A program made the position numbers and the translations under genes. Positions 24,807 through 64,000 of a stretch of DNA of 64,000 nt are shown here, one piece after another. The DNA is from an uncultured Acetobacteraceae bacterium (GTDB lineage Bacteria; Pseudomonadota; Alphaproteobacteria; Acetobacterales; Acetobacteraceae). The notes under the pieces were generated by a model, which saw only the letters and a program-made list of their open reading frames with translations, searched no databases and had not been told where the DNA came from. Each line of letters begins with the position of its first letter. Position 1 is the first letter of the stretch. The stretch is from positions 123,917 to 187,916 of the forward strand of contig CAIVPZ010000016.1 of NCBI GenBank assembly GCA_903907955.1, written 5' to 3'.

Positions 24807-24881
24807 GGCGGCGTAGCTCAGCGGTAGAGCAGGGGAATCATAATCCCTTGGTCGGTGGTTCAAATCCGCCCGCCGCTACCA
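24807..24881 (+). tRNA. tRNA-Met (anticodon CAT), elongator type
   Basis: Cloverleaf folded by hand: acceptor GGCGGCG/CGCCGCT; D-arm GCTC-agcggta-GAGC; anticodon stem GGGGA/TCCCT with loop aTCATAa; T-arm GGTGG-ttcaaat-CCGCC; discriminator A; CCA encoded. A T-rich tract follows (gggtttgtttttc). Confidence 0.75.
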
Positions 24882-49651: not shown

Positions 49652-51616
49652 TCAGGCGATGGTGCCGGGCTGAATGGTGCCGGCTTTGATGACGAAGTCG
49701 TTGGTCAATGAGATCGTGCTGTGATCCGTGCCGTAACCGGCGAACTTGATGGTAACGCCATCGCTGAGGGTGACAAGTGTGTAGCCGCTGCTGCCGGTGC
49801 CGTAGGCGTGTTCGCCGGTGATGGTGGCGGTCGTCGTGTTGGCGGGCGAGAACAGGTCGATCTTGTCGGAGCCTTGGACGAAGTCGGTGATGGTGATGGT
49901 GGTGTTCTGGGCATGCAGGTTGATGTCCACGAACTGGTCGTTGCCCTTGCCGCCGGTGAGGGTTTCGTTGCCGGTGCCGAAAATGAAGGTGTCCGCGCCG
50001 ACGCCGCCAACCAGCGTCTCGGGCGCGGCGCCGGTAAGATCACTGCCGATCAGCGTGTCGTTGCCCTTGCTGGCGGCTTGGATGTAGGTCGTGTAGGCGC
50101 CCGCCTGCAGGGTGTCGCCGCTGCCGCCGCCGAAGATCGACACGGCGCCGACGAGCAGATTCTTGCCCGATGTCCCGCCGTACTCTGCCTTCAATACTCC
50201 GCCGCTGGCGGAGCCGCCGCCGAACACGGTCTGGCTGCCACCTGAAACCGTGACGACCACATTGTTTGCTGTGAAGCCGGTGGAGGCAACGGGCACACCG
50301 TTCCAGTCGGTTTGCGAGACGGTGCCGAAGTAGAGAACGTTATTACCTGATGGCTTGATGAAGTAGGTGGTGGTGGCGTTATCAGAGCCGGTAATAAGAA
50401 GCCTTTTGCCGGCAGCGGTTGTACTATCCGTAACAACAAGGCCCGTGTCAGTCTTTAGCGTAACATTCTGGGCCGCAAGGACGGAGGCGGCCAGAGCCGT
50501 CGAGGCGAAGCTGACGGTGTCGGCACCGCTGAAGGTAATGCGGGCGCCAGCGCCGGCGTCGCCGACGGAGAAGTTTCCTCCGGCGAGATTCACAGTGGTC
50601 GAACCGCCCAGGCGGATTGTGTCGCTGCCAGTGCCTTGGAGCACAAAACGGTTGCCGCCGGTCAGCGACAGGGTGTCGCCAGTGGCAACATCCACGAGAA
50701 GGGGCTGGGTCTTGTTGGTGTAGGTGATGGTCTCGGTGGCGTTGGCGGTCGTGTTGACCGTGGTTTGGCCGGTGCCACTGCCACCGATCGAGAGGTCGCC
50801 GGCAGCGGCCTGGTTGACCTGCACGGCAACGTTGCCGGCATAGATCGAGCCGCTGCCGAGAGCGGTAATGGTGTCGGTATGGGGGGGGGCGGACCCTTGG
50901 ATGTTGACCGCAGCGCCGCCGAGCAGGCTGACGTTGATGCCGACAGCGCTGGTGATGACATCGGATTTGCCGGCGGCGGTCAGGCTGGGGACGGCTGGCG
51001 GAGTCGTTTTCGGGTTGGCGCTGTAGGGAACGATATCGAAGTTGCCGCCCGCCATGGTGACGGCGCCGGAACCGCCGACGGTGGCGTAGCCGCCCGTGAT
51101 GATTACGTTGCCGCCGAGATCGTGCAGCAGCACACCGGCACAACCGGCGATAACGTCGAGGTATCCCGAGTAAGCATTGATGGTGGCGGAGCCGAGTGTG
51201 GCGTTGACGGTGGTGCCTGGTGCGGTGGGCGACGTACCGCCGGCGTCAATGTAGTAGGATTCACCGAAATGGCTACCGTTTTTCAGAAGATTGCCGCCGA
51301 TGCTGTCGCCGCTGAAATAGATGCCCTGGTTTTTGCCGACAGCGGTGTAGGTAATATGATCGCCGGCCCCGGGAAGGGTGCCGCCACCGAGAACGCTGGC
51401 GTTGGCGGCGGTGCCGACGACATTGGCGCCGGCATGATAAAGGACGATGCCGTGCGCCTTGGTGGTGACGGCACCCGGGGGGTCGAAGTACTGGTCGCTT
51501 GCTGGAAGATTGCTGATAGCGCTGCCGGCCGACTGGGCGATGGTTCCCAACTGGTCGGTGGTGAACGGTATGGTCACCGTGCCATTTGCGCCTACAACCG
51601 TAACGTTGAACGCCAT
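49652..51616 (-). CDS. large secreted beta-helical repeat protein with a C-terminal RTX-like module; putative type I secretion substrate (adhesin or S-layer-like)
   Basis: 654 aa, Gly/Thr/Ser/Val-rich, and no N-terminal signal peptide (MAFNVTVVGANG). The C-terminal GGVGADTFIFGTGNETLTGGKGNDQF resembles GGxGxDxx hemolysin-type Ca-binding repeats, then an acidic/hydrophobic tail typical of T1SS signals. No T1SS genes in the window. Confidence 0.55.
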   Translation of the reverse strand: MAFNVTVVGANGTVTIPFTTDQLGTIAQSAGSAISNLPASDQYFDPPGAVTTKAHGIVLYHAGANVVGTAANASVLGGGTLPGAGDHITYTAVGKNQGIYFSGDSIGGNLLKNGSHFGESYYIDAGGTSPTAPGTTVNATLGSATINAYSGYLDVIAGCAGVLLHDLGGNVIITGGYATVGGSGAVTMAGGNFDIVPYSANPKTTPPAVPSLTAAGKSDVITSAVGINVSLLGGAAVNIQGSAPPHTDTITALGSGSIYAGNVAVQVNQAAAGDLSIGGSGTGQTTVNTTANATETITYTNKTQPLLVDVATGDTLSLTGGNRFVLQGTGSDTIRLGGSTTVNLAGGNFSVGDAGAGARITFSGADTVSFASTALAASVLAAQNVTLKTDTGLVVTDSTTAAGKRLLITGSDNATTTYFIKPSGNNVLYFGTVSQTDWNGVPVASTGFTANNVVVTVSGGSQTVFGGGSASGGVLKAEYGGTSGKNLLVGAVSIFGGGSGDTLQAGAYTTYIQAASKGNDTLIGSDLTGAAPETLVGGVGADTFIFGTGNETLTGGKGNDQFVDINLHAQNTTITITDFVQGSDKIDLFSPANTTTATITGEHAYGTGSSGYTLVTLSDGVTIKFAGYGTDHSTISLTNDFVIKAGTIQPGTIA

Positions 51617-52153: not shown

Positions 52154-52546
52154 TCAATTATCTGTTTTATCCCGCAACGATGGGTGGGGCGGCTCCGGGG
52201 TGCTGGAAAGGCGAGCGAGGCGGACGGCGGTGCGGACCAGCAAGGCGCGGTCATCGGGCGTGCAGTCGCGGTAGGCACGCAGCAGTGCCATTTCGTCGCC
52301 AAGCAGCGGCAGTGGAGGGCCGCCGGCTTCCGGCTCACCGGTGAGCAGGTAGGCCGCGCTGGTGCCGAGGAAGCGGGCGATGCGCGCCAGGTTGCCGCCG
52401 ACCTGGCCGGCGCGGCCGGTCTCCCACTGGGCGACGGCGCTCCGGGTGACGCCGACGGCGCGCGCCAACTGGTCCTGGGTGAGGCCCTGGGCGAGGCGGG
52501 CGGCGCGGATGCGGGCGCCGAGCTCGGCGGTTGGTGGATCGGTCAT
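52154..52546 (-). CDS. XRE-family (Cro/CI-type) HTH transcriptional regulator; putative repressor of the phage-like element
   Basis: LTQDQLARAVGVTRSAVAQWETGRAGQVGGNLARIARFLG is a classic XRE HTH. A C-terminal extension is present. Transcribed away from the structural genes. Confidence 0.7.
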   Translation of the reverse strand: MTDPPTAELGARIRAARLAQGLTQDQLARAVGVTRSAVAQWETGRAGQVGGNLARIARFLGTSAAYLLTGEPEAGGPPLPLLGDEMALLRAYRDCTPDDRALLVRTAVRLARLSSTPEPPHPSLRDKTDN

Positions 52547-52592
52547 GCGAACGACATAGGTGAAGAATTCTAACGGCGCAATGTCAGGCTTG

Positions 52593-52619
52593 TTGACATG
52601 CGTAAGTTAGTAGGACTAA
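52593..52619. promoter_or_regulatory. divergent switch region with a TTGACA box and the palindrome TTAGTAGGACTAA (candidate operator)
   Basis: TTGACA at 52593-52598, followed 8 nt later by the perfect inverted repeat TTAGT-agg-ACTAA at 52607-52619. Lies between the XRE start (52546) and the plus-strand ORF at 52649. Confidence 0.35.
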
Positions 52620-52648
52620 CGTCTGGCCGTCAGAGCAAGAGGTTTCCC

Positions 52649-52948
52649 ATGGCGGCAAGCATCGAGACCTGGACGGCTCCCTCCGATTTCCGGCTGCGTC
52701 GGATGCGCCTGGAAGGCGCGTCGTGGGAGGCAATCGCTGAGGCGCTGGCAGTCAGTCCGCAGGCGGCGCGCGTGCGCGCGGATCGGATCGCGGCACGCCG
52801 GCCGTCGCCTGGCCTGACCGCGACCGAGGATCCGGCGCGCGAGCCGCTGCCAGCGGGGCATCCGCGGGCCTGGGGCGTGCTGACGCAGGGAACCTGGCTG
52901 GCCGGAACGCGCTATCCGACGCCGGCGATGATGGGGTGCGTGGCGTGA
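52649..52948 (+). CDS. small hypothetical protein with a GcrA-N-terminal-like HTH segment
   Basis: Start MAASIETWTAPSDFRLRRMRLEGASWEAIAEALAVSPQAARVRADRIA, RBS aagagg. Loosely resembles the W-T-x-E-R...EG-x-S-x2-IA-x2-LG...R pattern of the GcrA N-terminal domain. Internal ATG of track ORF 52598..52948. Confidence 0.3.
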   Translation: MAASIETWTAPSDFRLRRMRLEGASWEAIAEALAVSPQAARVRADRIAARRPSPGLTATEDPAREPLPAGHPRAWGVLTQGTWLAGTRYPTPAMMGCVA

Positions 52949-53460
52949 AGCCGGCGGTGATGAGCGCGGGCGGCGGCGAGGCATCGGCCGATCCGGCATC
53001 GCGTGGCGCGAACCGGAGGGGCGGGACTGCGGGAAGGGAAGGTGTCCATGACGCGCAACTGGTGGTGGCGCGCCTGGAAGAGGCGGGGCGGACCCTGCTG
53101 GCACTGCCCCCGGGCGGGTATTCGACCGGCATGCGGCTGAATGTGGCTGCCCTGGTGCGCCATATGATCGCGGCAGGGGAGGGGGAGCCGGTGCCCGCCC
53201 GGTTGCATCCATCGGTCCCCTCGGCAGCGGTGATTACCCGCATGGACGAGGCTCTGGGATGGATTCCGCTGATCCCGCGTGACCGCAGCGTTCTCCGCCG
53301 CATTGTTGGTGCCCGGTCGCTGGTCAACCCGATGACCGACCGGCATCTGTATCCGTGGCGGCGGCTGGGGGTGATGCTCGGTGCCGACCACAAGGCGGTG
53401 CAGCGCTGGCATGCCCAGGGAGTGGACATGATCGTTGCGGCGTTGAACGCGGCCGGCTGA
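52936..53460 (+). CDS. hypothetical protein with a C-terminal HTH-like segment (possible late-gene activator; unassigned)
   Basis: 174 aa. Overlaps the preceding ORF by 13 nt. C-terminal LYPWRRLGVMLGADHKAVQRWHAQGVDMIVAAL resembles a sigma-region-4/LuxR-type HTH. Confidence 0.3.
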   Translation: MRGVKPAVMSAGGGEASADPASRGANRRGGTAGREGVHDAQLVVARLEEAGRTLLALPPGGYSTGMRLNVAALVRHMIAAGEGEPVPARLHPSVPSAAVITRMDEALGWIPLIPRDRSVLRRIVGARSLVNPMTDRHLYPWRRLGVMLGADHKAVQRWHAQGVDMIVAALNAAG

Positions 53461-53529
53461 CCCAACAAGGCCCGGAATGCCCGGCTATTGGGCATTTCGG
53501 GCCGGCGGCGTGGCGCGCGGGTGGTGTGT

Positions 53530-53895
53530 CTATGGCAGCAGGGTTGTTTCGACGCGCGGCAGACGGAATGCGGCGTGGCAGCGTGGCGTGGCGTAGGTGC
53601 CGGTGGCGGCCGCGCCGTCGAGGCGGCCGGTGACGGTGAGCGTGAAGGGAGGGGCCGCGGTGGCGGAGTGGCTCTGCTGGTCGTGCCGGGAGGGATTGGT
53701 GACCAGCGATCCGGTGAAGCTGCCGTCGGGTGCCACGGTGCCGGAAATGACCAAAACTCCATCGGACGGCGAAAAGCTGAAGCCGGCGGCCTGGCGCACC
53801 AACGTTGCCCGTGCGCCTGATCCTGCCCCGCAAGCCGGCAGATCGCCCGCATAGCGGCTTTCAGCGGCGAGCGGCATGCCGCAGCCGGCTGCCAT
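53530..53895 (-). CDS. hypothetical protein, possibly a lipoprotein (spanin-like is a guess)
   Basis: The in-frame upstream codons read LSRLLALAAASCL-MAAGCGMPLAA, i.e. a signal-peptide-like hydrophobic stretch with a possible lipobox AAGC, but no canonical start codon lies upstream of the ATG at 53895. Directly downstream of the RlpA-like gene. Confidence 0.25.
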   Translation of the reverse strand: MAAGCGMPLAAESRYAGDLPACGAGSGARATLVRQAAGFSFSPSDGVLVISGTVAPDGSFTGSLVTNPSRHDQQSHSATAAPPFTLTVTGRLDGAAATGTYATPRCHAAFRLPRVETTLLP

Positions 53896-53930
53896 GAGGC
53901 AACTGGCTGCGGCGAGGGCGAGAAGGCGGC

Positions 53931-54500
53931 TCAGAGCGGGGTGAGCGTGACCATGGCCACGCCGCGTTCGAGGATGCCGAGTTCGCGGGCGGCGGCGCGC
54001 GAGAGATCAATGATCCGCTTTCGCGTGCCCGGCCGGTCGTTGATGGTAACCACAACGTCGCGCCCGCTGTCGACCAGGGTCACACGGACCCGGGTGCCGA
54101 TCGGGAGACTGGCGTGGGCGGCGGTGAGGGCGTCCTGGTCGTAGACGTCGCCGCTGCTGGTGCGGTTGCCGTGCCAGCGCTGGCCACCGTACCACGAGGC
54201 GATGCCGGTCTGGTGCGTGCCGGAGGCTGCCGGACGTTCCTCGAGGAAGGCTGCGGTGCGGTAGGGGGCGACACGCGCAGGCGCATGCGCTGCGGCGGGG
54301 TGGACGGTGGGGGTGCGGCGCAAGCGCTGGGCGTGCACGACCTGATGTGGGCTTTGGCGAGTCTGAGCGGACTTTCGGTGCTTGCTGCCAAGGGTCGGTC
54401 CCGGGGTGTCATGGATGTGGGACGCGACTGCCACATTGGGCCCCATCAGCAGCACTGAAGCCACTACGCCCGAAAGGGCGGTCCTCGTGAGATCGATCAT
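53931..54500 (-). CDS. RlpA-like lytic transglycosylase (double-psi beta-barrel) with a signal peptide
   Basis: Start MIDLTRTALSGVVASVLLMGPNVAVA (signal peptide). IASWYGGQ...GNRTSSGDVYDQDALTAAHASLPIGTRVRVTLVDSGRDVVVTINDRPG is the RlpA DPBB domain. Internal ATG of track ORF 53931..54689. Confidence 0.6.
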   Translation of the reverse strand: MIDLTRTALSGVVASVLLMGPNVAVASHIHDTPGPTLGSKHRKSAQTRQSPHQVVHAQRLRRTPTVHPAAAHAPARVAPYRTAAFLEERPAASGTHQTGIASWYGGQRWHGNRTSSGDVYDQDALTAAHASLPIGTRVRVTLVDSGRDVVVTINDRPGTRKRIIDLSRAAARELGILERGVAMVTLTPL

Positions 54501-54944
54501 CAAACGTATTCCCGTTCCGTTGCCATGTCCCGGAGGTCGGGACGTGGTCATGATGGAACCGCCGTACCCAAAAATGGGGCGGGCGGCAATGGTGCGGATC
54601 AAACGGCGCATCGAGCCAAGGAAACGCACCTTGATCAAACCCGGAAATGTGGCTGAATTAAGACTCGGGCCGAAGGCTTCTGGCGGCATCGCCGATCATG
54701 ACTGGGGCTGGCCCGCCTATGCCCGGAAGGACTGCCGAACTTTCCCGTAAGGACAGTGGGTTACGGAGCGTTACGTACGCGATCGAGAGGATCGCGGAAA
54801 ATAATCCGCACAGACTGAAAAAATTCCTTGCCCAAACGCCCCGGTTCAGGGTATAGGTTTCGCCATGATCGGCGGCGTGCGCGGACGGAGGTCCGGCACG
54901 CCGCTTTGCGTTTCAACCCCGATAGCGAGGCTCGGACCCGGTGC

Positions 54945-56300
54945 ATGGCAGGGCCGTTGCTGCGATTGCCGGATTGGGCGAATACGGCGCTCGCGCCGTT
55001 GGCGCCGGCGGCGCACCACTTGCTCCTGCTGGCGAAGCTGGAGCGGCTGGAGGCCGGAGAGATCGACCGGCTGATGGTGCTGATGCCGCCCGGCAGTGCC
55101 AAGTCAACCTATGTATCTGTTCTGTTCCCGGCGTGGTGGCTGCATCGCCGGCGCCGCAGCTCGGTGATCGCGGCATGCCATACGGCGGATCTGGCCGAGC
55201 ATTTCGGGCGGCAGGTGCGCCGGCTGGTGAGCGAGCATGCAGATGTGCTGGGCTATGGGCTGGCGGCCGGCGACCGCGCGGCAGGGCGCTGGGCGACGAC
55301 CGACGGCGGCACCTATTTCGCCACCGGGGTGCGTGGGCCAATCACCGGACGCCGGGCCGACCTGGTGGTGATCGATGACCCCATCAAGAGCCATGCCGAG
55401 GCAGACAGCGCGCTGCACCGCGACCACGCGTGGGACTGGTACCGCAGCGATCTGGTGACCCGGCTGCGGCCGGGGGCGCGGGTGGTGGTGGTGATGACGC
55501 GCTGGCACCCCGACGACCTCGGGGGGAGGCTGTTGGAGTGCGACCCGGGTTGGGACGTGCTGCGGCTGCCGGCGCTGGCGGAGGCGGGCGATCCGCTCGG
55601 GCGGGCGCCTGGCGAGGCGCTCTGGCCCGAGTGGGAGGATCTCGCCGCGCTGGAGCGCAAGCGGGCATTGGTGGGCGGGCGGATGTGGTCGGCGCTGTTT
55701 CAGCAGTCGCCGCGGCGCGATCACGGGACGCTGTTTCCGGTCGGGAAGATCGATGTGGTCGAGGCGGTGCCGGCGGATATGGGCAGCGTGCGCGCCTGGG
55801 ACCTGGCGGCGACGGCGCAGGGTGATGGGCGCGATCCGGACTGGACGGTCGGGCTGAGACTCGGGCGCGAGCCGTCGGGGCGCTTTCTGGTGTCGGACGT
55901 GGTGCGCCTGCGGGGCGGACCGCATGAGGTGGAGGAGGCGATCGTGGCGACCGCACACCAGGATGGACGTGCGGTGCCGGTCGGCCTGCCGCAGGACCCC
56001 GGCCAGGCTGGCAAGCATCAGGTGGCGTGGCTGGCCACCCGGCTGGCCGGGCACCGGGTGGTCGCGTCTGCCGAGACGGGGGCCAAGCTGACCCGCGCGC
56101 TGCCGGTGGCGGCACAGGTGGAGGCCGGCAATCTGCGGCTGCTGCGCGGCGGATGGAACCGCGCCCTGCTGGACGAGCTGCGCGACTTTCCGCACGGGCG
56201 CAAGGACGACCAGGTGGACGCGCTGTCCCGTGCCTTCTCGATGCTGGCCGATACGCCGCCGCCGGTGCGGCGCCTGCACCTGCCGATCATGTGCCGCTGA
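54945..56300 (+). CDS. phage terminase large subunit
   Basis: ATPase Walker-A-like MVLMPPGSAKST and Walker B/coupling VVIDDPIKSHAEAD. Nuclease domain VVVMTRWHPDDLGG...DDQVDALS. 451 aa. Internal ATG of track ORF 54828..56300. Confidence 0.75.
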   Translation: MAGPLLRLPDWANTALAPLAPAAHHLLLLAKLERLEAGEIDRLMVLMPPGSAKSTYVSVLFPAWWLHRRRRSSVIAACHTADLAEHFGRQVRRLVSEHADVLGYGLAAGDRAAGRWATTDGGTYFATGVRGPITGRRADLVVIDDPIKSHAEADSALHRDHAWDWYRSDLVTRLRPGARVVVVMTRWHPDDLGGRLLECDPGWDVLRLPALAEAGDPLGRAPGEALWPEWEDLAALERKRALVGGRMWSALFQQSPRRDHGTLFPVGKIDVVEAVPADMGSVRAWDLAATAQGDGRDPDWTVGLRLGREPSGRFLVSDVVRLRGGPHEVEEAIVATAHQDGRAVPVGLPQDPGQAGKHQVAWLATRLAGHRVVASAETGAKLTRALPVAAQVEAGNLRLLRGGWNRALLDELRDFPHGRKDDQVDALSRAFSMLADTPPPVRRLHLPIMCR

Positions 56301-56313
56301 GGCAGAGGAACCA

Positions 56314-57705
56314 ATGTTCGAAACCATCTGCGGACTGATTCCGCGCGATCCGGACTACGACGAGCGCACCCGCCGACTGGACATCCTGAAACGGGTGCTG
56401 GAAGGCCGGCTTTACGACTCGTTGCCGTTCGAATTTCATGAGGAACGCAGTGCGGCCGGCGAATATGTGCCGCTGCGCCTGCGGCGGCCTTCGGTGCGCT
56501 ATCCGCTGGCGCGCATTGTCGTCGATGACAGCGTGTCGCTGGTGTTTGGCGACGGGCATTTCCCGATGCTGGACAGCGAGGACGCAGCGGTGCGTGCGGC
56601 GCTCGCCGACATCGCCAAGGAAGCCGGGCTTAACCGGGTGATGCTGGACGCGGTGCTGCGCGGCTCGGTGGGGTCGGTGGCCATCCAGCTTCGGATGCTG
56701 CGCGGGCGGGTTTTCCTGCAGGTGCTGGAGACGACCTATCTGACGCCGCGCTGGGATCCGGAGGAACCGGATACGCTGCAGAGTGTGACCGAAGAGTACA
56801 AGGTGCCGGGTCGGGTGCTGGCGGCGCAGGGATATACGCTGGCCGATGCGGCCTCGGCCTACTGGTTCATGCGGCGCTGGGACGCCGAGACCGAGACCTG
56901 GTTCGAACCGTGGCCGGTGGGGCAGCAATGCGTGCCGGTGGTCGATGAGACGCGCACGGTGCGGCACGGGCTGGGTTTCGTGCCGCTGGTGTGGATCCGC
57001 AACCTGCCGGGCGGCGACCGGGTGGACGGTGCCTGTACCTTCCGTCCGGCGATCGAGACCGCGATCGAGATCGACTACCAGCTCAGCCAGGCCGGAAGGG
57101 GACTGAAATACAGCTCCGATCCCACGCTGCTGGTGCGCGAGCCGGCGGCGATGGAGGGCGAACTGATCCGCGGTGGCGGCAACGCGCTGGTGGTGTCCGA
57201 AAAGGGCGACGCCAAGCTGCTGGAGATCAATGGCACCGCGGCGGCGGCGGTGATCGATTACGTGCGCACTTTGCGCGAGCTGGCGCTGGAAGGCGTGCAC
57301 GGCAACCGTGCCTCCGCCGAGCGGCTGTCGGGGGCGCAGTCGGGGCGTGCGCTGGAGATGATGAACCAGGGGCTGGTGTGGCTCGCCGACAACCTGCGGG
57401 TCAGTTACGGCGCCGGGTTGCTGGAGCTGGCGCGCATGGTGATCCGCGCTTCCAACCGCTACGCGCTGCGCACGCATGGGGAACGGATTCCGCCGCTCGA
57501 TCCCTCGGCGCGGGTCGGTCTGAAATGGCCGCGTTGGTACTCGCCGACGGCTGAAGACAGGCTGCGCGACGCGCAGACGCTGCGCGTGCTGGCCGGCTCC
57601 GGCACCATCTCGAGAGAGACGGCGCTCAAGTGCATCGCCGACGTCTACGACATCGAGGACGCACCGGCGGAACTCGCCCGAATTGCAGCCGAGAGGACGC
57701 CATGA
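56314..57705 (+). CDS. phage portal protein
   Basis: 463 aa immediately after the terminase. Conserved central region GLGFVPLVWIRNLPGG...LSQAGRGLKYSSDPTLL and a C-terminal helical crown. Position and size are typical of a portal. Confidence 0.6.
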   Translation: MFETICGLIPRDPDYDERTRRLDILKRVLEGRLYDSLPFEFHEERSAAGEYVPLRLRRPSVRYPLARIVVDDSVSLVFGDGHFPMLDSEDAAVRAALADIAKEAGLNRVMLDAVLRGSVGSVAIQLRMLRGRVFLQVLETTYLTPRWDPEEPDTLQSVTEEYKVPGRVLAAQGYTLADAASAYWFMRRWDAETETWFEPWPVGQQCVPVVDETRTVRHGLGFVPLVWIRNLPGGDRVDGACTFRPAIETAIEIDYQLSQAGRGLKYSSDPTLLVREPAAMEGELIRGGGNALVVSEKGDAKLLEINGTAAAAVIDYVRTLRELALEGVHGNRASAERLSGAQSGRALEMMNQGLVWLADNLRVSYGAGLLELARMVIRASNRYALRTHGERIPPLDPSARVGLKWPRWYSPTAEDRLRDAQTLRVLAGSGTISRETALKCIADVYDIEDAPAELARIAAERTP

Positions 57706-58097
57706 CCGAAGACGATCCGGCCAGTGTGCCGGCCGAGGATGCCGAAGCGCGTGCGGTGGATCTGCAGCGCCGTCTGACGGAGCTGGAAACGCAGAGCCGG
57801 CAACGCCTGATCAGGGCGGAGTTGAAGGCCGAGGCGGTGCGCGCCGGGATGGTGGACCTTGACGGTCTGAAACTGGTGGATCCAGGCACGCTCAGCATCG
57901 ATGAGGTGGGCGAGGTGCAGGGGGCGGCAACGCTGATGCAGTCGCTGCGGCGTGCGAAGCCGTGGCTGTTCGGCGGTGCGAGCACTTCCAGCGCGGCGAC
58001 GCCGCCGCCTGCGCAGGTGCTGCGCACCCGGCGGGCGACCGAAATGACGGCTGAGGAATGGCTCGCCGCGCGCGCCGATCTGCTGCGCCGGCGCTGA
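57702..58097 (+). CDS. putative phage scaffolding/head-assembly protein (coiled coil, GP20-like)
   Basis: 131 aa. The ATG overlaps the portal stop (ATGA). Acidic N-terminus, coiled-coil RRLTELETQSRQRLIRAELKAEAVRAGMVDLDGLKLVD, basic C-terminus. Sits between portal and capsid. Confidence 0.45.
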   Translation: MTEDDPASVPAEDAEARAVDLQRRLTELETQSRQRLIRAELKAEAVRAGMVDLDGLKLVDPGTLSIDEVGEVQGAATLMQSLRRAKPWLFGGASTSSAATPPPAQVLRTRRATEMTAEEWLAARADLLRRR

Positions 58098-58204
58098 GGA
58101 TTCCCGGCGCTGCGCCGCCCTGGCGCTGAGGACTTCCGACAGACTGACCGGCCGGACCCCCGCGGCGATGGGCGCGCGGGATTGCACAACCACGAGAGTA
58201 GAGC

Positions 58205-59527
58205 ATGGGCATCCAGAATTTTCCCGCCGCGCTGCAGCCGATCATCCAGCAGGGCTTTCTCGAGCGTGAGTTCGAGGAAGCGCTGCACAGCCGGCTGGGC
58301 TATCGGGCGGTGGCCGACCGCGAGGAGTTTTCGGTGGGCATCGGCGAGACGCTGACCAAGACGCGCGCCGGACTGAAGCCGAGCGTGACGGTGCCGATCC
58401 TGCCTTCGACCAACACCAACCTGGACAACGGACTGACGCCGCAGAACTTCACCGTCGAACAATACACCATCACGATCAACCATTACGCGGCCACTACCGA
58501 CCTGAACATGGTGACCAGCCGCGTGGGCATCGCCAGTCAGTTCCTGCTGAATGCGGCGATCAACGGCGAGCAGGCCGCGCGCAGCCTGGACGAGATCGCG
58601 CGGAATGCACTGTTCGCCGCGTATTTCGGCGGCAACACGCGGGTTCGCTCGACGCTGGCATCGCCCGGCCCGACCGTGGCGGTGGACGACATCCGCGGCT
58701 TCCAGACGGCCTTCGTCAACGGTGTGCAGACGCCGGTTGGCGGAGCGGCGTCGCTGACCGTGACGGTCGGATCGAATGCCTACACTCTGGTCGGGGCGAG
58801 CGCCGACGGGGTGAATGCATCGACCACGCCGGGCGGCATTTCCGGCACGCTGACCTTCTCCGGGTCGGTGTCGGCGGCTGATGCGACCGCGCTCAATACG
58901 GTGACGGCGGCGACCGCAAGCGCGGTGGTGCGGCCGAACGGGCGCGGCAACACCGCTGCGCTGCAGAGCGGCGATACGCTCACCATGGGGTCGCTGCTGA
59001 ACGCGGTGGCGCTGTTGCGGTTGAACGCGGTGCCGGAGATCGACGGCGTGTTCAACTGCTACCTCGATCCGGTCTCGGCGCGGCAGTTGTTCGCCGACAA
59101 CGACTTCCGGCAGTTGTTCACCGGCGCCACTTCGGCCAACCAGGTGTTCCGCAAGGGGATGGTCAACGACTTCCTCGGGCTGCGCTTCATCCCGACGACC
59201 GAGGCCTATGTGCAGTCGCATCCGACGATCACCGGCGGGGTGGTGCGCCGGCCGATCGTGTGTGGCAAGGGGGCGCTGATCGAGGGCGACTATGCCGGGA
59301 TGGCGGCGGCGGATGTGGCGCCGAAGGACAGCATCATCTCGGTGGTGGACGGGGTGGCGATGGTGACGCGCGAGCCGGTCGACCGGCTCCAGCAGATCAT
59401 CGCGCAGTCCTGGTACTGGATCGGCGGGTTCTGCACCCCGTCGGATACTACGACATCGCCGACCACGATTCCGACCGCAACCAATGCCACCTTCAAGCGG
59501 GCGGTGATGATCGAGCATATCGGCTGA
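58205..59527 (+). CDS. phage major capsid protein
   Basis: 440 aa directly after the scaffold-like gene. Beta-rich with a Gly/Thr/Ala-rich surface region. NCYLDPVSARQLFADNDFRQLF is a typical capsid assembly motif region. No prohead protease gene in the module. Confidence 0.6.
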   Translation: MGIQNFPAALQPIIQQGFLEREFEEALHSRLGYRAVADREEFSVGIGETLTKTRAGLKPSVTVPILPSTNTNLDNGLTPQNFTVEQYTITINHYAATTDLNMVTSRVGIASQFLLNAAINGEQAARSLDEIARNALFAAYFGGNTRVRSTLASPGPTVAVDDIRGFQTAFVNGVQTPVGGAASLTVTVGSNAYTLVGASADGVNASTTPGGISGTLTFSGSVSAADATALNTVTAATASAVVRPNGRGNTAALQSGDTLTMGSLLNAVALLRLNAVPEIDGVFNCYLDPVSARQLFADNDFRQLFTGATSANQVFRKGMVNDFLGLRFIPTTEAYVQSHPTITGGVVRRPIVCGKGALIEGDYAGMAAADVAPKDSIISVVDGVAMVTREPVDRLQQIIAQSWYWIGGFCTPSDTTTSPTTIPTATNATFKRAVMIEHIG

Positions 59528-59656
59528 CGACGGGCGATCAACAGGCGCGCGTCAGCGCGATTCATCAGACGCAAGCGCAGCGCGATGGCGGACGGGGCAG
59601 GCAGCGCTGTCCGCCGTCGTGCTGGCATGCGGTATTCGTGCGGCGGGAGCGACGAC

Positions 59657-60031
59657 ATGGCGTTCAGCGAGGCCGAGAAGACAGATATCCGCCGCTTCTG
59701 CGGCTATCCGGCGCACGGGGTGGGCGGACTGCTGCAGGGGTGGCGATTCTACCAGGTTTACGGGCTGCTGGAATACCGTCTGCTGTACCTGAGCGGCGCG
59801 GAGGAGGCGGTGGCGCGGCAGTACCTCACCACGCTGTCGGCGCTCGAGCGGGCGGTGGTTGAGGCGAGCGGCAACCTTGATACCGATCAGGCGGCGACCT
59901 GGACGCACAACCGCGATGAAGTGCGCGACCGGGTTCGCCTGTTCGACGACTGGCGGCGGCGGCTGGCCGGCTTCATGGGCGTGCCGGCCGGACCAGCGCT
60001 CGGCAATGGCGGCATTGCGCTGGTGGTATGA
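59657..60031 (+). CDS. hypothetical phage protein (head completion or neck candidate)
   Basis: Start MAFSEAEKTDIRRFCGYPAH. 124 aa. Position between capsid and sheath. Internal ATG of track ORF 59585..60031. Confidence 0.35.
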   Translation: MAFSEAEKTDIRRFCGYPAHGVGGLLQGWRFYQVYGLLEYRLLYLSGAEEAVARQYLTTLSALERAVVEASGNLDTDQAATWTHNRDEVRDRVRLFDDWRRRLAGFMGVPAGPALGNGGIALVV

Positions 60032-60678
60032 TGAGCGAGCGGTGGCTTAGCGAGAAGGTATGGCGCGGCCTGGGAAGGGCGGCGCGTGTGATCGGCCAGA
60101 AGACGGATGCGTATCGGCCGAGCGATATCGCCGATCCGTTGTTGCCGGCGAACCGTTACCTGCAGTTGCCGGCTTCGTTCAGCCGGCCACGCATAGGGGC
60201 CGCGCGCGCCGGCGGCGGCGGCGAGGCCTTCTGGGAGGGGGTGTTTGACGCCGCCTATACGCGGCCGGGCGACTACCTGGTGCGGGCGGATGGCGGCATC
60301 TGGTTCATTGCGGTGCAATCGCCGATGCAGGTGCCCCTGTGCGTGCAGGCGCTCCGGCGGTTAAGCTTCGCGCGCCCATCCGGTCCGGTGAGCGCCGGGG
60401 CGAATTCGTATGGCGGTGTGGCGCGCGGCACCGCCTCCGCCGTGTTGACCAACTGGCCGGCGGCGATGGCGACACCCGCGGCGAGGGGGCAGATCGAACT
60501 GGCGACCGCAACAACGCTGCCGCAGGCGGTATGGTCGGTGCTGCTGCCGCCGCTGGAATGGCTCGCCCTGTTGCCTGGCGATACGATGACCGACGATTTG
60601 GGGCGCGCCGGCGTGGTTGATGTTGCCGAATACACCGAACGGGGCTGGCGGCTGGTGGTGCGGCAGTCGGCGTCCTGA
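60028..60678 (+). CDS. hypothetical phage protein (neck or tail-completion candidate)
   Basis: 216 aa. Start overlaps the previous stop (ATGA). High GC3. Confidence 0.35.
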   Translation: MMSERWLSEKVWRGLGRAARVIGQKTDAYRPSDIADPLLPANRYLQLPASFSRPRIGAARAGGGGEAFWEGVFDAAYTRPGDYLVRADGGIWFIAVQSPMQVPLCVQALRRLSFARPSGPVSAGANSYGGVARGTASAVLTNWPAAMATPAARGQIELATATTLPQAVWSVLLPPLEWLALLPGDTMTDDLGRAGVVDVAEYTERGWRLVVRQSAS

Positions 60679-60797
60679 GGCGTGCGGCACCGGAGCGCGT
60701 TGCGTTGCGGTGCGGTTGCCGGCTGCGCAGGCCAGCACCGCCAGGACGGGCCGACGCGTTGCACGGCCGACGAAAGTTCCAGCAAGGGAGAGCAAAG

Positions 60798-61007
60798 ATG
60801 CCAGGGTATGTCCTTTGGCTCGACAGCACGACGACGCCGCCAACGGCGACGATCGCGCAGATCCCCGATCCGTTGCCTGGCAGCAACATGCCGATCGGTG
60901 CCTGCCGCGCGACGCAGCCGACAGCGAATGCGCGCTGCATCGGCACCCTCGGCACGAACACAAACGATACCAACCTGCCGCTGCACCGCTGGACGCCCGT
61001 GCTGTGA
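60798..61007 (+). CDS. small hypothetical phage protein (69 aa)
   Basis: MPGYVLWLDSTTTPPTATIAQIPDPLPGS.... RBS gggagag 6 nt upstream. In frame within track ORF 60705..61007. Confidence 0.3.
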   Translation: MPGYVLWLDSTTTPPTATIAQIPDPLPGSNMPIGACRATQPTANARCIGTLGTNTNDTNLPLHRWTPVL

Positions 61008-61077
61008 CGCCTGCCATCGACGGTCATCGCCGCTGAGGCTTGCGCGCTGAGGCACACACCACGGAGATCCCGAGAAG

Positions 61078-61908
61078 ATGGCCGACCAGTCCGATGTCGC
61101 GACCGCCCTGGTCTCGGCGATCACCACGATCCTGTACCCCAACGGGGCGGCGTCCGTCGGTCTGCTCGCGCAGACCGTGAAAATATATCGCGGTTGGCCG
61201 AACACGGCGTCGCTGCGGACGGACCTGGCGGCGAATTCGCTGAATGTCACTGTGTTCCCGATAGCGGACACCGCGCGCAACACGACCCGCTGGGCGGATG
61301 GCCTGGTGCCGACAAGCAGCGTGACGCCGCCGCTGACGGTGAGCGTAAGCGGCACGAGCGCGATCTTCGGCGGGTCGGCGGATGCGGGACAACTCGCCGG
61401 GCTGCTGGTGGATTCGATGGCGGTCGTGCATCGGACGGTGGCGGCCGATACACCGGAACTGGTGGCGGCGACGCTCGGGCAGTTGATTCGTACGAAGCGC
61501 ATTGCATTGGTGAGTGGCGCGACGGTGACGGTGCCTGGCGCGGGGCTGCTGCTGGGCCGGGTGGTGGCGGATCAGCCGGTGCTGCGTTGGACACGGAGCC
61601 AACAGCAGCAGTTCCGGATCAGTTGCTGGTGCCCGGACCCGGCTTCGCGCGACAGCGTTGCCTCGGTGATCGACACCGCGCTGTCGCCGCACAGCTTCCT
61701 CGCGTTTAACGACGGCAGCACGGGGCGTTTGCGCTACGTGGGGACGACGGAATTCGACCAGAGCCAGGATGCGGCCCTGTACCGGCGCGACCTGGTCTAT
61801 TCGGTGGACTACCTGACGATAGTTTCCGACGTGCTGCCATCGATGATCTTCGGTGACACGACGCTCGCGCCGCTCGGTTCGGGCAATGTGAAAACCCTGC
61901 TCAGTTGA
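61078..61908 (+). CDS. hypothetical phage structural protein (tail-completion or sheath-initiator candidate)
   Basis: 276 aa, immediately upstream of the sheath gene. No motif recognised. Confidence 0.35.
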   Translation: MADQSDVATALVSAITTILYPNGAASVGLLAQTVKIYRGWPNTASLRTDLAANSLNVTVFPIADTARNTTRWADGLVPTSSVTPPLTVSVSGTSAIFGGSADAGQLAGLLVDSMAVVHRTVAADTPELVAATLGQLIRTKRIALVSGATVTVPGAGLLLGRVVADQPVLRWTRSQQQQFRISCWCPDPASRDSVASVIDTALSPHSFLAFNDGSTGRLRYVGTTEFDQSQDAALYRRDLVYSVDYLTIVSDVLPSMIFGDTTLAPLGSGNVKTLLS

Positions 61909-61921
61909 ACGGGAGTTTGCA

Positions 61922-62083
61922 ATGACCATCCAACTCGTCGTGGTGCGTCCTTTCGGGACGTACGCAAAGGGCGACGCGATCGGGGATGCTGCCTCGATCG
62001 CAACGATATTGGCATCCGAGCAGGCGACCAGCGTGGTGCGGGTTCAGCTGCCGGCGCCGAGCCAGCCGAAGCAGGGAGGCTAA
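61922..62083 (+). CDS. small hypothetical phage protein (53 aa); not in the supplied ORF track
   Basis: MTIQLVVVRPFGTYAKGDAIGDAASIATILASEQATSVVRVQLPAPSQPKQGG. RBS gggag 5 nt upstream. Stop 3 nt before the sheath ATG. Fills the gap between 61908 and 62087 exactly. Confidence 0.4.
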   Translation: MTIQLVVVRPFGTYAKGDAIGDAASIATILASEQATSVVRVQLPAPSQPKQGG

Positions 62084-62086
62084 GGG

Positions 62087-63685
62087 ATGCCGATTGTTCA
62101 ACAGGGTAGCGTCAATACCACCGCGCTGGTGGTGCCCGATCTGTATGTGCAGATCGTTCCGCCGCAGAACCTTGTGCTCAACGGTGTGCCGACCAACGTG
62201 GTGGGCATGGTGGGCACGGCGAGCTGGGGACCGGTGGGGCAGCCGGTGATCGTGGCTACCATGGCCGACTATGCGTACACGTTCGGGCCGATCGTGGCGC
62301 GGCTGCAAGACATGGGTACGCAGGTGGCGACCGCGGTGCAGCAGGGGGCGGCCAACTTCCGCTGCGTGCGGGTGACCGACGGCACGGATATGGCGGCACA
62401 GTTCCTGCTGCCAAACACCAACTTCGTGTTCACGGCGCTGTACACGGGGAGTTTGGGTAGCCAGATATCGGTGACGATGACCACGGGATCGCAGGCCGGG
62501 ACGTGGCGGCTGACCGTATCGCTGCCTGGCGGGGCGATCGAGGTGTTCGACAACATTGGCAGCAGCACGATCGGTGACAGCGAAACCGCCATCTGGCAGA
62601 GTTTCTGGCAGAACCTGGCGGCGGCGGTGAACAACGGGCAGGGGCCGCAGCGCGGGCCGAGCCAGATCGTGGTGGCGAATGCCGCCGGCAGCACGGCGGT
62701 GCTGACGCAGGGATTCAGCTACACCTTCGCGACCGGCCCGGCCGGCAGCGACGGCGCCAATGTGACCGCGGGCAACCTGGTGGGCGTGGATCAGGTGCCG
62801 CGGCGCGGTATGTATGCCCTGCGCGGGCAGGGCTGCAGCATTGCCGCGCTGGCCGATGCCACCGATCCCTCGCAGTGGACCACCCAGGCGGCGTTCGGAC
62901 TGTCCGAGGGGATCTACATGATCCTGGCCGGGCCGAGCGGCGATACCATCACCAACGCGATCGCGGCGAAACATGCTGCCGGGCTCGATACCTATGCCTG
63001 CAAGCTGATGTTTGGCGACTGGCTGTGGTGGAACGACCAGGTGAACGGCACGTTGCGGCTGGTTTCGCCGCAGGGTTTCGTGGCGGGGCGGCTGGCCAAC
63101 CTGTCGCCCGAGCAGTCGAGCCTGAACAAGCCGCTCTACAGCGTGGTGGGCAGTCAGAAATCCGGCGCGCCGGGGTCTGGGCAGGCGAGCGCCTACAGCA
63201 GCGCCGAGTTGCAGACGCTGTTCCAGGCCGGCATCGACGTGATTTCCAACCCGCAGCCCGGCGGATACTATTGGGGCGTCCGGTGCGGCCACAACAGTGC
63301 GTCCGGCGCGGCCACCAGCGGCGACAACTACACGCGGCTGACCAACTACATCGCCGCCACGCTGGCGGCCGGGATGGGGCAGTATGTGGGGCAGGTGGTG
63401 AACGCCACGTTGTTCCAGCGCATCCGCGCGACGCAGCTGAGCTTCCTGCAGGGGATGCTGTCGCAGGGGATGCTCGGCAGCACCGACGGCAGCCTGCCGT
63501 TCAGCGTGATCTGCAATGCCAGCAACAACCCGCTGTCGCGGACCTCGCTCGGCTATGTGCAGTCCGATGCGCAGGTGCAGTACCAGGCAATCAACGAGAA
63601 GTTCATCGTCAACATCGAAGGCGGCCAGACCGTTGCGGTTACGCAGCGGACGCTGGGGAATGCGTCCGGCGCGCGCGCGGCGTAA
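62087..63685 (+). CDS. phage tail sheath protein (contractile tail)
   Basis: N-terminal LVVPDLYVQIVPPQNLVLNGVPTNVVGMVGTASWGPVGQPVIV matches the sheath pattern (PGVY..E....G.ts.agfvG....GP). C-terminal GYYWGVRCGHNS and RLTNYIAATLA resemble the sheath C-terminal domain. 532 aa. Confidence 0.7.
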   Translation: MPIVQQGSVNTTALVVPDLYVQIVPPQNLVLNGVPTNVVGMVGTASWGPVGQPVIVATMADYAYTFGPIVARLQDMGTQVATAVQQGAANFRCVRVTDGTDMAAQFLLPNTNFVFTALYTGSLGSQISVTMTTGSQAGTWRLTVSLPGGAIEVFDNIGSSTIGDSETAIWQSFWQNLAAAVNNGQGPQRGPSQIVVANAAGSTAVLTQGFSYTFATGPAGSDGANVTAGNLVGVDQVPRRGMYALRGQGCSIAALADATDPSQWTTQAAFGLSEGIYMILAGPSGDTITNAIAAKHAAGLDTYACKLMFGDWLWWNDQVNGTLRLVSPQGFVAGRLANLSPEQSSLNKPLYSVVGSQKSGAPGSGQASAYSSAELQTLFQAGIDVISNPQPGGYYWGVRCGHNSASGAATSGDNYTRLTNYIAATLAAGMGQYVGQVVNATLFQRIRATQLSFLQGMLSQGMLGSTDGSLPFSVICNASNNPLSRTSLGYVQSDAQVQYQAINEKFIVNIEGGQTVAVTQRTLGNASGARAA

Positions 63686-63694
63686 CAGGAGGAC

Positions 63695-64000
63695 ATGGTG
63701 ACGAGCACGAACTTTTCGGTCGGTCGCGACTGCCAGCTGGTGGTGTTGGGGCCGTATGGTCGGATCGACCTGACCTATGTGACGGCGTTCGAGAGCCGGC
63801 AACTGACTGCGCCGGTGCGCGTTGATTGCATTGACGGCACGCAAATGGCGGCCGAGTTGCCCAAGGGGTGGGAAGGCCATTTTGAGCTGGAGCGCGGATC
63901 GCCGGCGGCGGACGATTTTATTGCCCAGACCGAGGCTGCGTTCTTTGCCGGCCGGGCGGTGCCGGCGGGCAAGCTGTACCAGTATGTGAGCGAAAGGGAC
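63695..64000 (+). CDS. phage tail tube protein (5' part; continues beyond the window end)
   Basis: ATG at 63695 with RBS aggagga. MVTSTNFSVGRDCQLVVLGPYGRIDLTYVTAFESRQL. Small beta-rich protein directly after the sheath, as in Mu/P2-type tails. Confidence 0.5.
   Translation, partial: MVTSTNFSVGRDCQLVVLGPYGRIDLTYVTAFESRQLTAPVRVDCIDGTQMAAELPKGWEGHFELERGSPAADDFIAQTEAAFFAGRAVPAGKLYQYVSERD

Follow-up and report, generated by a model that had tools for sequence, protein, structure and literature searches.

A chromosomal cluster of myovirus-type head and tail genes in Acetobacteraceae, probably domesticated by its host lineage

To our knowledge, only a few independent domestications of phages by their hosts still build DNA-filled particles, namely the RcGTA-type gene transfer agents (GTAs), BaGTA, VSH-1, Dd1, VTA and PBSX; among these, we know of none with a contractile tail in the Alphaproteobacteria and of none described for the Acetobacteraceae. 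The stretch analyzed here, 64,000 nucleotides from an uncultured Acetobacteraceae bacterium (contig CAIVPZ010000016.1, positions 123,917 to 187,916; called the window below), carries at its right end a gene cluster in which an XRE-family repressor and two small regulators, r99 and a DUF6362 protein, adjoin genes for the large terminase subunit (TerL), portal, scaffold, capsid, contractile tail sheath and tail tube. Judged from the content of the complete element, its locus and the selection acting on it, this is probably a domesticated, non-autonomous, vertically inherited particle cluster that derives from a myovirus and is maintained by selection.

PBSX of Bacillus subtilis is a chromosomal element that neither excises nor replicates. 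Its Xre repressor adjoins the late genes, and a sigma-like protein, Xpf, activates the genes for the head, the contractile tail and lysis; it has both terminase subunits and a full lysis cassette, packages DNA in small heads (13 kb) and kills. The cluster of the window resembles PBSX in layout only: an XRE repressor and the sigma-4-like DUF6362 protein lie beside head, contractile-tail and lysis-type genes, with neither integrase nor replication genes. However, PBSX is a Firmicute system, whereas the nearest relatives found for the window cluster are proteobacterial phages. Furthermore, the window cluster is without a small terminase and an endolysin, and in some relatives its regulators are unlinked from it.

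In CcGTA, the repressor RogA controls a two-gene operon of small activators, GafY and GafZ (PMC11150451). One of these contacts sigma70; the other has a sigma-like helix-turn-helix (HTH) and, at the promoter of the structural genes, serves as an antiterminator. There is a terminator early in the operon, and the regulator genes are not linked to the structural cluster. This control by RogA, GafY and GafZ was demonstrated by experiment (PMC11150451). The likeness of the window cluster to CcGTA and RcGTA (RogA, GafY/GafZ, GafA) is one of logic: an XRE gene faces r99 and DUF6362, a conserved promoter precedes a leader hairpin, and the regulators are unlinked in a relative. In contrast, the RcGTA and CcGTA particles are of siphovirus type, with an HK97 capsid and a protease, and their structural genes are unrelated to those of the window. 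No RcGTA family was matched in NCBIfam or Pfam, and the cluster has a sheath and, in the scans made of it, no prohead protease; consequently, membership in the RcGTA group was rejected, as the original prediction for this DNA had already held.

Mitomycin-induced, myovirus-like particles without an integrase, phiAO1, have been described from Acetobacter (Omata et al. 2021; PMC8566455). The phiAO1 record (LC644971, 34.1 kb), in which genes for catalase, superoxide dismutase, peroxiredoxin, sorbosone dehydrogenase and MutT are interspersed among the structural genes, encodes a TerL 51% identical to that of the window, and its 87-aa open reading frame (ORF) before TerL is homologous to an ORF in subfamily B, a distant branch of the window cluster's own family. 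It differs in its capsid, which is of the DUF2184 type, in its tail genes and in having no detected DUF6362; what it shares with the window cluster is limited to TerL, Gp77, part of a fibre and one lipoprotein. As far as its genes tell, the phiAO1 record appears to be no phage genome but a further chromosomal particle cluster or host DNA that was packaged. A 2025 study of the Sphagnum virome found Acetobacteraceae phage-like regions without excision or replication modules in every sample; its "shared phage-like contigs" carry gpV/W/J baseplate, packaging and lysis genes and flanking host genes, e.g., for dihydroorotate dehydrogenase (DHOD), and one contig has an S24 gene (PMC12142844). The likeness of the window cluster to these contigs is by description only, in the missing excision and replication modules and in a DHOD flank that recurs in one relative (L234). 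Unlike R-type tailocins, the window cluster has TerL, portal, scaffold and capsid genes, all strongly constrained. A search of the literature on DUF6362 or on a contractile GTA in the Alphaproteobacteria found nothing beyond PMC8566455 and PMC12142844. Among known systems, PBSX and the regulatory scheme of GTAs come nearest to the cluster in layout and logic.

Extent and gene content of the element

The window was extended by stitching it to three contigs (L001, L149 and L148) through 100%-identical overlaps, which gave 85.6 kb of reconstructed sequence; positions above 64000 are window-continuing coordinates of this reconstruction. The exact sheath protein is found on contigs of 39 sample blocks. 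Genes were called from an ORF listing with profile scans (Pfam, PHROG, NCBIfam) and with a codon log-odds caller; gene calls for the same DNA in independent metagenome annotations agree with those of the window. The element spans 25.2 kb, from 52154 to about 77325, of which the window holds the left 12 kb, and its GC content is slightly below the chromosomal level. After the tail tube come three small ORFs in the position of chaperones, a 319-aa tape measure, baseplate genes of the gpD, gpV, gpW, gpJ and gpI types, a 372-aa fibre, Gp77 and a 754-aa beta-helix (pectate-lyase-type) protein. The right end is formed by p118, p137 (a transmembrane segment and a coiled coil), p75 (two transmembrane segments) and two lipoproteins, beyond which lie host genes: a 424-aa methyltransferase-like gene (m424), MarR, an S24 CI/LexA-like regulator, PQQ, NUDIX, PhoU/PHO4 and HU. 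Left of the XRE gene, both in the window and in relatives, there are likewise host genes.

The structural part of the element and its left border within the window are as follows.

52154-52546, minus strand: XRE-family repressor, 130 aa (HTH_3, 1.5e-14; phrog_4, "transcriptional repressor", 8e-17); left end of the element
53530-53895, minus strand: conserved ORF of 121 aa, with orthologues of 29-67% identity in relatives
53931-54500 (or 54689), minus strand: RlpA-like DPBB lytic transglycosylase (DPBB_1, 2.6e-21)
54945-56300, plus strand: terminase large subunit (TerL), 451 aa (Terminase_6N/6C; phrog_38, 1.2e-96)
56314-57705, plus strand: portal, 463 aa (SPP1_portal, 9e-12)
57702-58097, plus strand: scaffold-like protein, 131 aa (Phage_scaffold, 3e-06, a weak match under the Pfam cut-off)
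58205-59527, plus strand: major capsid protein (MCP), 440 aa (phrog_1357, 4.9e-35)
59657-62083, plus strand: five head-completion/neck ORFs of 124, 215, 69, 276 and 53 aa (three of the five match phrog_14539, 14605 and 13532, PHROGs of unknown function)
62087-63685, plus strand: contractile tail sheath, 532 aa (phrog_23, 9e-47)
63695-64000, plus strand: protein in the position of the tail tube (phrog_12993, 2e-20), truncated here by the end of the window; the complete gene, for 142 aa, is in L001

Every gene that the original prediction had listed, from the XRE repressor to the tube, was recovered in its place by the ORF listing and profile scans, and no match to a primase, helicase, replication initiator or integrase was obtained between the switch and TerL. 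The five "small" ORFs before the sheath are present, but two of them reach 215 and 276 aa. The lipoprotein proposed beside the RlpA-like gene, our 121-aa ORF, is one in relatives, with a lipobox signal in distant members, but the window copy has no obvious signal peptide; its ratio of nonsynonymous to synonymous divergence (dN/dS) is 0.33-0.39. The tape measure, baseplate and fibres expected beyond the window were found there, and the alternative that had been allowed, a larger prophage continuing to the right, did not hold.

That alternative, an ordinary temperate prophage with its integrase, replication and lysis modules further right, can draw on structural genes that are clearly those of real temperate myoviruses and on an XRE switch typical of prophages. 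However, the full element ends about 13 kb past the window and has host genes on both sides. Pfam and PHROG scans of its 25.2 kb, flank genes included, found no integrase, excisionase, transposase, replication or recombination gene, and an exact-repeat search of 49.4-52.7 kb against 76-82 kb for attachment (att) repeats gave only a 15-mer (49498/80925), which is not credible as att because such a match is at chance level for the given GC content. The same is found in many relatives. An ordinary prophage is extremely improbable. Three further candidates for a hidden integration function were rejected. The single tRNA gene of the window, a tRNA-Met at 24807-24881, lies far from the element and was set aside as an integration target; the Komagataeibacter phage phiKX2 has a tRNA-Met beside its integrase. 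The genes left of XRE contain no integrase or replication module, being an MFS transporter, TetR, a radical SAM protein and a gene without assigned function in one relative (L152) and an RTX-like gene in the window. Finally, m424 at the right edge, tried as a recombinase, has no Pfam hit, is methyltransferase-like and belongs to a flank common to another genome (L088).

The RlpA-like gene is divergent from TerL and lies directly upstream of it even where the regulators are absent or unlinked, and in other family members host-type genes stand directly upstream of the RlpA-TerL pair. By gene order, the RlpA-like gene is thus the conserved left border of the structural cluster across the family, and it may take part in particle release. 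The protein in the tape-measure position (64978-65937) is of low complexity, with 52% Ala+Pro+Gly in its 319 aa, and its similarity to the tape measures of the phage relatives (636 and 742 aa) is confined to its two ends. A short tape measure is also present in the close relatives L004, L084, L085, L088, L090 and L092, and in more distant members the space at this position is about as short, with no homology detected. These results suggest a shortened tail.

Conservation of the locus, selection and separated regulators

The host genes upstream of the cluster are ppk, ppx, rnd, corA, aspS and eipB. When metagenomes were scanned with eipB, contigs with aspS at 90% and eipB at 79-84% identity were found to carry the element to the right of eipB; thus several related species have the cluster at the same position, as had been asked of a domesticated element. 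Strain-variable presence, which the original prediction had named as a sign of an ordinary prophage, was not seen: all contigs with an identical eipB or XRE gene carry the element. XRE is separated from eipB by 2.4-5.8 kb of host genes that vary between genomes. In the window this slot is filled by a 654-aa Gly/Thr/Ala-rich repeat protein (49652-51616, minus strand) with a weak C-terminal RTX/serralysin-C match; it lies in the lowest-GC stretch of the window (0.62), and homologues of 28-50% identity occupy the same slot in L103, L104 and L108. On the right, L088 shares the flank of the window (m424 at 77% and MarR at 91% identity), and on the left, an MFS-TetR-methyltransferase-"big" block is orthologous, at 38-84% identity, across lineages whose TerL proteins are only 62-69% identical.

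Synonymous divergence (dS) and dN/dS were estimated by the Nei-Gojobori method for a few genome pairs, with no full phylogeny. Between the window organism and L150, dS is 0.46-0.94 for host genes and 0.47-1.2 for the element, and dN/dS is 0.105 for TerL, 0.086 for the portal and 0.092 for the capsid, against 0.109 for aspS. In a comparison with a genome in which regulators and structural genes are split (see below), dS is 0.33-0.66 for host genes, 0.52-0.64 for the regulators and 0.42-0.67 for the structural genes, with dN/dS values of 0.07-0.32. Over the comparisons, dN/dS was 0.105-0.127 for TerL, 0.07-0.09 for the portal and 0.09-0.10 for the capsid; with the tube included, the range of 0.07-0.13 is as low as that of aspS (0.09-0.11), and the purifying selection that had been named as a sign of domestication is therefore present. 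A dS of the element close to that of the host, together with a low dN/dS, is what vertical descent under purifying selection predicts.

In some relatives, the cluster has come apart. In the window, the regulators are adjacent to the structural genes. In a metagenome-assembled genome (MAG), MFD00082.bin.1.22, a 3.28-Mb contig has the order corA-aspS-eipB-MFS-TetR-MTase-519aa-XRE-r99-DUF6362 (L231; identical in L232 and L233), and DUF6362 is followed by host genes for D-Glu cyclase, acyl-CoA dehydrogenase, a glycosyltransferase and cbb3 oxidase. An intact sheath-to-lysis cluster lies on the same contig about 0.28 Mb away (L092), and in a sister assembly (L236), the full RlpA-TerL-portal-scaffold-capsid...tube cluster, with gene lengths nearly identical to those of the window, stands beside rpmE, hsp20, purE and purK. 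In L234, XRE, r96 and DUF6362 are followed by the DHOD gene, with no TerL, and in L240-242 the regulator trio is turned around and separated from RlpA-TerL by three other genes. Regulators that are inverted or some 0.3 Mb off would be incompatible with a mobile genome packaged as one piece, but not with a host regulon.

These findings bear on a second alternative, in which the element is a still-mobile non-canonical phage or helper-dependent element that uses host, helper or unrecognized functions of its own, and in which the shared locus reflects site-specific reinsertion. The family is very widespread, its flanks differ in some genomes, several of its ORFs have no known function, and the head could hold more than 25 kb. 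However, neither att repeats nor a recombinase of any family was found, the element agrees with the host genes in dS, the flanks are syntenic even between deeply diverged lineages, and the regulators can be far off or inverted; consequently, a still-mobile element is very unlikely. Instead, content, locus, selection and split architecture all support the proposal of a domesticated PBSX- or GTA-like particle element. Of the features by which GTAs are recognized, the following were found here: chromosomal phage-like structural genes without replication, excision or integration functions of their own, control in trans and dispersed genes in relatives and, in a small sample, vertical inheritance with purifying selection.

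Several points nevertheless weigh against domestication with selective maintenance. The dS values may be partly saturated or affected by codon bias. L161 (aspS 92%) has no element within 10 kb of eipB, and the right flanks of L084 and L085 differ (sulfotransferase, dnaE2, imuB); thus loss or relocation occurs, and some horizontal movement is possible. L161 was rejected as a clean empty site, since its genes right of eipB do not match the right flank of the window. Most relatives are MAG or metagenome contigs, in which misassembly is possible, but the split junctions recur in at least three independent assemblies. The capsid protein is of the same size as in phages of 46-53 kb, so the head might hold the whole 25-kb cluster; a classical GTA head would hold less than its own cluster. 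Particle production, DNA packaging, transfer and killing are, in this organism, predictions from the genes. Furthermore, this copy could be functionally impaired in two ways. First, no lysin hit was obtained across the 85.6 kb of reconstructed sequence. A GH108 + PG_binding_3 endolysin lies between p137 and p75 in L084, L085, L088, L090 and L092; at this position, the window organism (75630-75865) has a spacer of about 240 nt in place of a gene of about 550 nt. The missing lysin may handicap the window copy. Second, no small-terminase candidate was found in this copy or its subfamily. In subfamily B (TerL 54-64%), an 80-90-aa ORF between the promoter and TerL is a small-terminase candidate, homologous to the 87-aa ORF that overlaps the TerL start in phiAO1; the subfamily B ORF was not accepted as a confirmed TerS, because it matches only phrog_15261 (weakly; function unknown) and is absent from the subfamily of the window. 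A fragment of the p89 ORF persists at 76787-76885.

The two absences, together with the 121-aa ORF that has no signal peptide and the half-length, low-complexity tape measure, could be taken as signs of a decaying cryptic prophage remnant that is without function and being lost. However, the structural ORFs are intact here and in dozens of relatives, with dN/dS values (0.07-0.2) equal to those of housekeeping neighbours. The cluster has stayed at one locus through a dS of about 0.5-1 and is intact even after separation from its regulators. In addition, the short tape measure is family-wide and hence no private lesion. A remnant in decay is therefore an unlikely explanation.

A candidate switch for the late genes

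Candidate elements of control are present around the two regulators and in the gap before TerL. They are the following.

52547-52648, no strand assigned: switch region, in which promoter-like sites point in opposite directions and TTAGT-N3-ACTAA forms an inverted repeat
52649-52948, plus strand: r99, a small protein whose N-terminal HTH domain is GcrA-like and whose C-terminus, GHPxxWxxxTxGTxLxGxxYP, is conserved
52960-53460, plus strand: DUF6362 protein, 166 aa (PF19889, 4e-07; phrog_6836, 5e-16), with a C-terminal half like sigma region 4
54818-54857, plus strand: late promoter-like element, GAA-N6-TTCC overlapping TTGCCC (54828-54833), then an 18-nt spacer and TATAGG (54852-54857)
54864-54914, plus strand: leader terminator-like element, an invariant CATGATCGGCGGCGTG, a 15-bp GC-rich hairpin (54871-54905) and a U-rich tail

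In the switch region, the minus-strand promoter-like site is TCAACA-18-TAGAAT (52596-52567), and TTGACA on the plus strand lies at 52593-52598; the inverted repeat is a putative operator. A profile built from 18 r99 orthologues hits two GcrA chains, 7ye1_G (E=0.0023) and 5yiu_A (0.02), and Pfam GcrA matches weakly in 7 of the 18. It was always found paired with DUF6362, which on comparison resembles sigma region 4 and Q21 in its C-terminal half. The r99 protein is a candidate late-gene activator, and DUF6362 a candidate activator or antiterminator.

The gap of about 440 bp without a small-terminase gene that had been noted before the head genes measures 444 bp between RlpA and TerL (54501-54944). 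It is judged non-coding because relatives have indels there, and yet it is strongly conserved among them. In alignments of relatives, the late promoter motif occurs once per locus and always before TerL, and it is kept in the split genome. Written as a pattern, this motif is CCTTGMCC-N16-20-GTAK-N8-14-ATGATC. The leader hairpin has a minimum free energy of -32.3 kcal/mol (z -2.3); relatives keep its stem, in whose inner part compensatory changes affect 3 of 11 pairs, and the L240 leader has a clear hairpin followed by TTTTTT. A simple terminator scan did not call the hairpin of the window, because the stem is bulged.

Taken together, these features lead to a model for the control of the cluster. 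The XRE protein would, as the layout suggests, repress the divergent r99-DUF6362 operon. After derepression, r99 and DUF6362 would act in trans on the single conserved promoter before TerL, activating transcription and carrying RNA polymerase past the leader hairpin. A late operon of about 23 kb would then be expressed, comprising TerL, portal, scaffold, capsid, neck, sheath, tube, the short tape measure, baseplate, polysaccharide-lyase-type fibres, and holin-like and lipoprotein genes. TerL would package chromosomal DNA, either in situ or at random, to give GTA-like or PBSX-like particles; in an element without excision or replication, it must be chromosomal DNA that a working TerL packages.

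The S24 CI/LexA-like repressor gene in the right flank (79611-80264, minus strand; L148 9053-9706; phrog_4, 3e-27) lies 2.3 kb to the right of the element, beside a 126-aa ORF of no assigned function (80494-80874, plus strand; L148 9936-10316). Neither is in the corresponding flank of L088; the pair might serve as an SOS input or be left over from another element.

Phage ancestry, family distribution and possible roles

Searches with the sheath and capsid proteins returned only seven phage records, including the Ralstonia phages Raharianne, Hyacinthe and Albius (Rahariannevirus; 46 kb) and the Komagataeibacter phages phiKX1 and phiKX2 (53 kb). From portal to baseplate, the cluster is homologous to and collinear with Raharianne and phiKX, with portal, scaffold, capsid, neck, sheath, tube and baseplate in the same order and at 27-62% identity. 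With Raharianne, identity is 55% for the portal, 48% for the scaffold (gp26), 62% for the MCP, 56% for the sheath and 35% for the tube (gp37, which follows the sheath); the MCP is 52% identical to that of phiKX, and the five neck ORFs have syntenic homologues in Raharianne and phiKX2. The phages differ from the cluster in having genomes of 46-54 kb with an integrase or transposase and RecET, a replication initiator with DnaB or nuclease genes between switch and terminase, an extra gene before TerL and tape measures of 636-742 aa. Their TerL is of a different family, not homologous to that of the cluster, whose nearest TerL in a phage record is that of phiAO1. By collinearity and protein identity, then, the cluster goes back to a temperate myovirus whose structural type was that of Raharianne and phiKX; to judge by its genes, the functions lost are integration and excision, replication, recombination and, in this subfamily, a recognizable small terminase.

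The family is large. In IMG/VR, 443 sheath relatives were found at 72% identity or more, and cluster counts amount to 2802 for DUF6362 and more than 5000 for close TerL proteins, from bog, soil and lake bacteria. A scan with DUF6362 gave 38 loci, 36 of which have the order XRE (minus), r99 (plus), DUF6362 (plus), a lipoprotein (minus), sometimes RlpA (minus), and TerL, with nothing else between; in these 36, TerL starts 0.7-2 kb after DUF6362 and is 54%-90% identical. One distant member (L237) has a 206-aa gene (11419-12039, minus strand) inserted between TerL and portal. Carriers in GTDB are Acetobacteraceae MAGs, Limobrevibacterium and an Asaia MAG; the closest representative has about 85% nucleotide identity, and the species of the window is not among the representatives. 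In five GTDB MAGs, the fibre genes at the right end are followed by a GH108 endolysin gene, by small genes for membrane proteins or lipoproteins and, immediately after these, by host genes, which are sulfotransferase, dnaE2 and imuB, or MarR and aldo-keto reductase, or a helicase. A "Mycobacterium sp." MAG (L086 and L087 in GTDB; P0072) also contains copies of the cluster, at 78-86% identity, and a single TerL was assigned to a "Bryobacteraceae" MAG (P0179); the probable cause is wrong binning, not transfer across phyla. Many of the IMG/VR "viral genomes" (L004-L083, L103-L140) are 22-29 kb long, and many start 16-19 nt before r99. Hundreds of such records appear to be copies of the chromosomal cluster cut out by provirus trimming.

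What the particles might do is less certain. They may transfer DNA, a putative role that is less likely than not, they may kill, which is likewise putative and rather doubtful, or they may do both. With killing in mind, it could be argued that the cluster was domesticated not as a DNA-transfer agent but as a killer particle, i.e., a PBSX- or tailocin-like bacteriocin. The contractile tail, the polysaccharide-lyase-type fibres, the XRE repressor with a sigma-like late factor and the S24 (SOS-type) regulator nearby would fit such a particle and parallel PBSX. However, few genes are under stronger constraint than those for TerL, portal and capsid (dN/dS 0.07-0.13), which argues that DNA-filled heads matter; yet PBSX also keeps its head and packages DNA. 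A killer particle is thus a doubtful but serious alternative to DNA transfer within the broader reading of a domesticated cluster.

A more specific hypothesis can be put forward tentatively, at less than even confidence. In this model, the clusters would represent an independently domesticated, myovirus-derived GTA family that is widespread in peat, soil and lake Acetobacteraceae and has been mis-scored as "provirus" in viral databases; a GcrA-like activator and a sigma-4-like antiterminator, under control of a repressor, would act in trans on a leader-terminated promoter, and, in the subfamily of the window, a TerL without a small subunit would package host DNA. Since mitomycin-inducible particles without an integrase (phiAO1) exist in cultured acetic acid bacteria, this hypothesis is directly testable. 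The natural split versions are a ready-made genetic dissection of cluster control, and the locus offers a first functional context for DUF6362 and for the small GcrA-like protein. Meanwhile, the family inflates counts of "prophages" and of the "core virome", and it could be a major unrecognized route of gene exchange or antagonism in bog, soil and lake communities.

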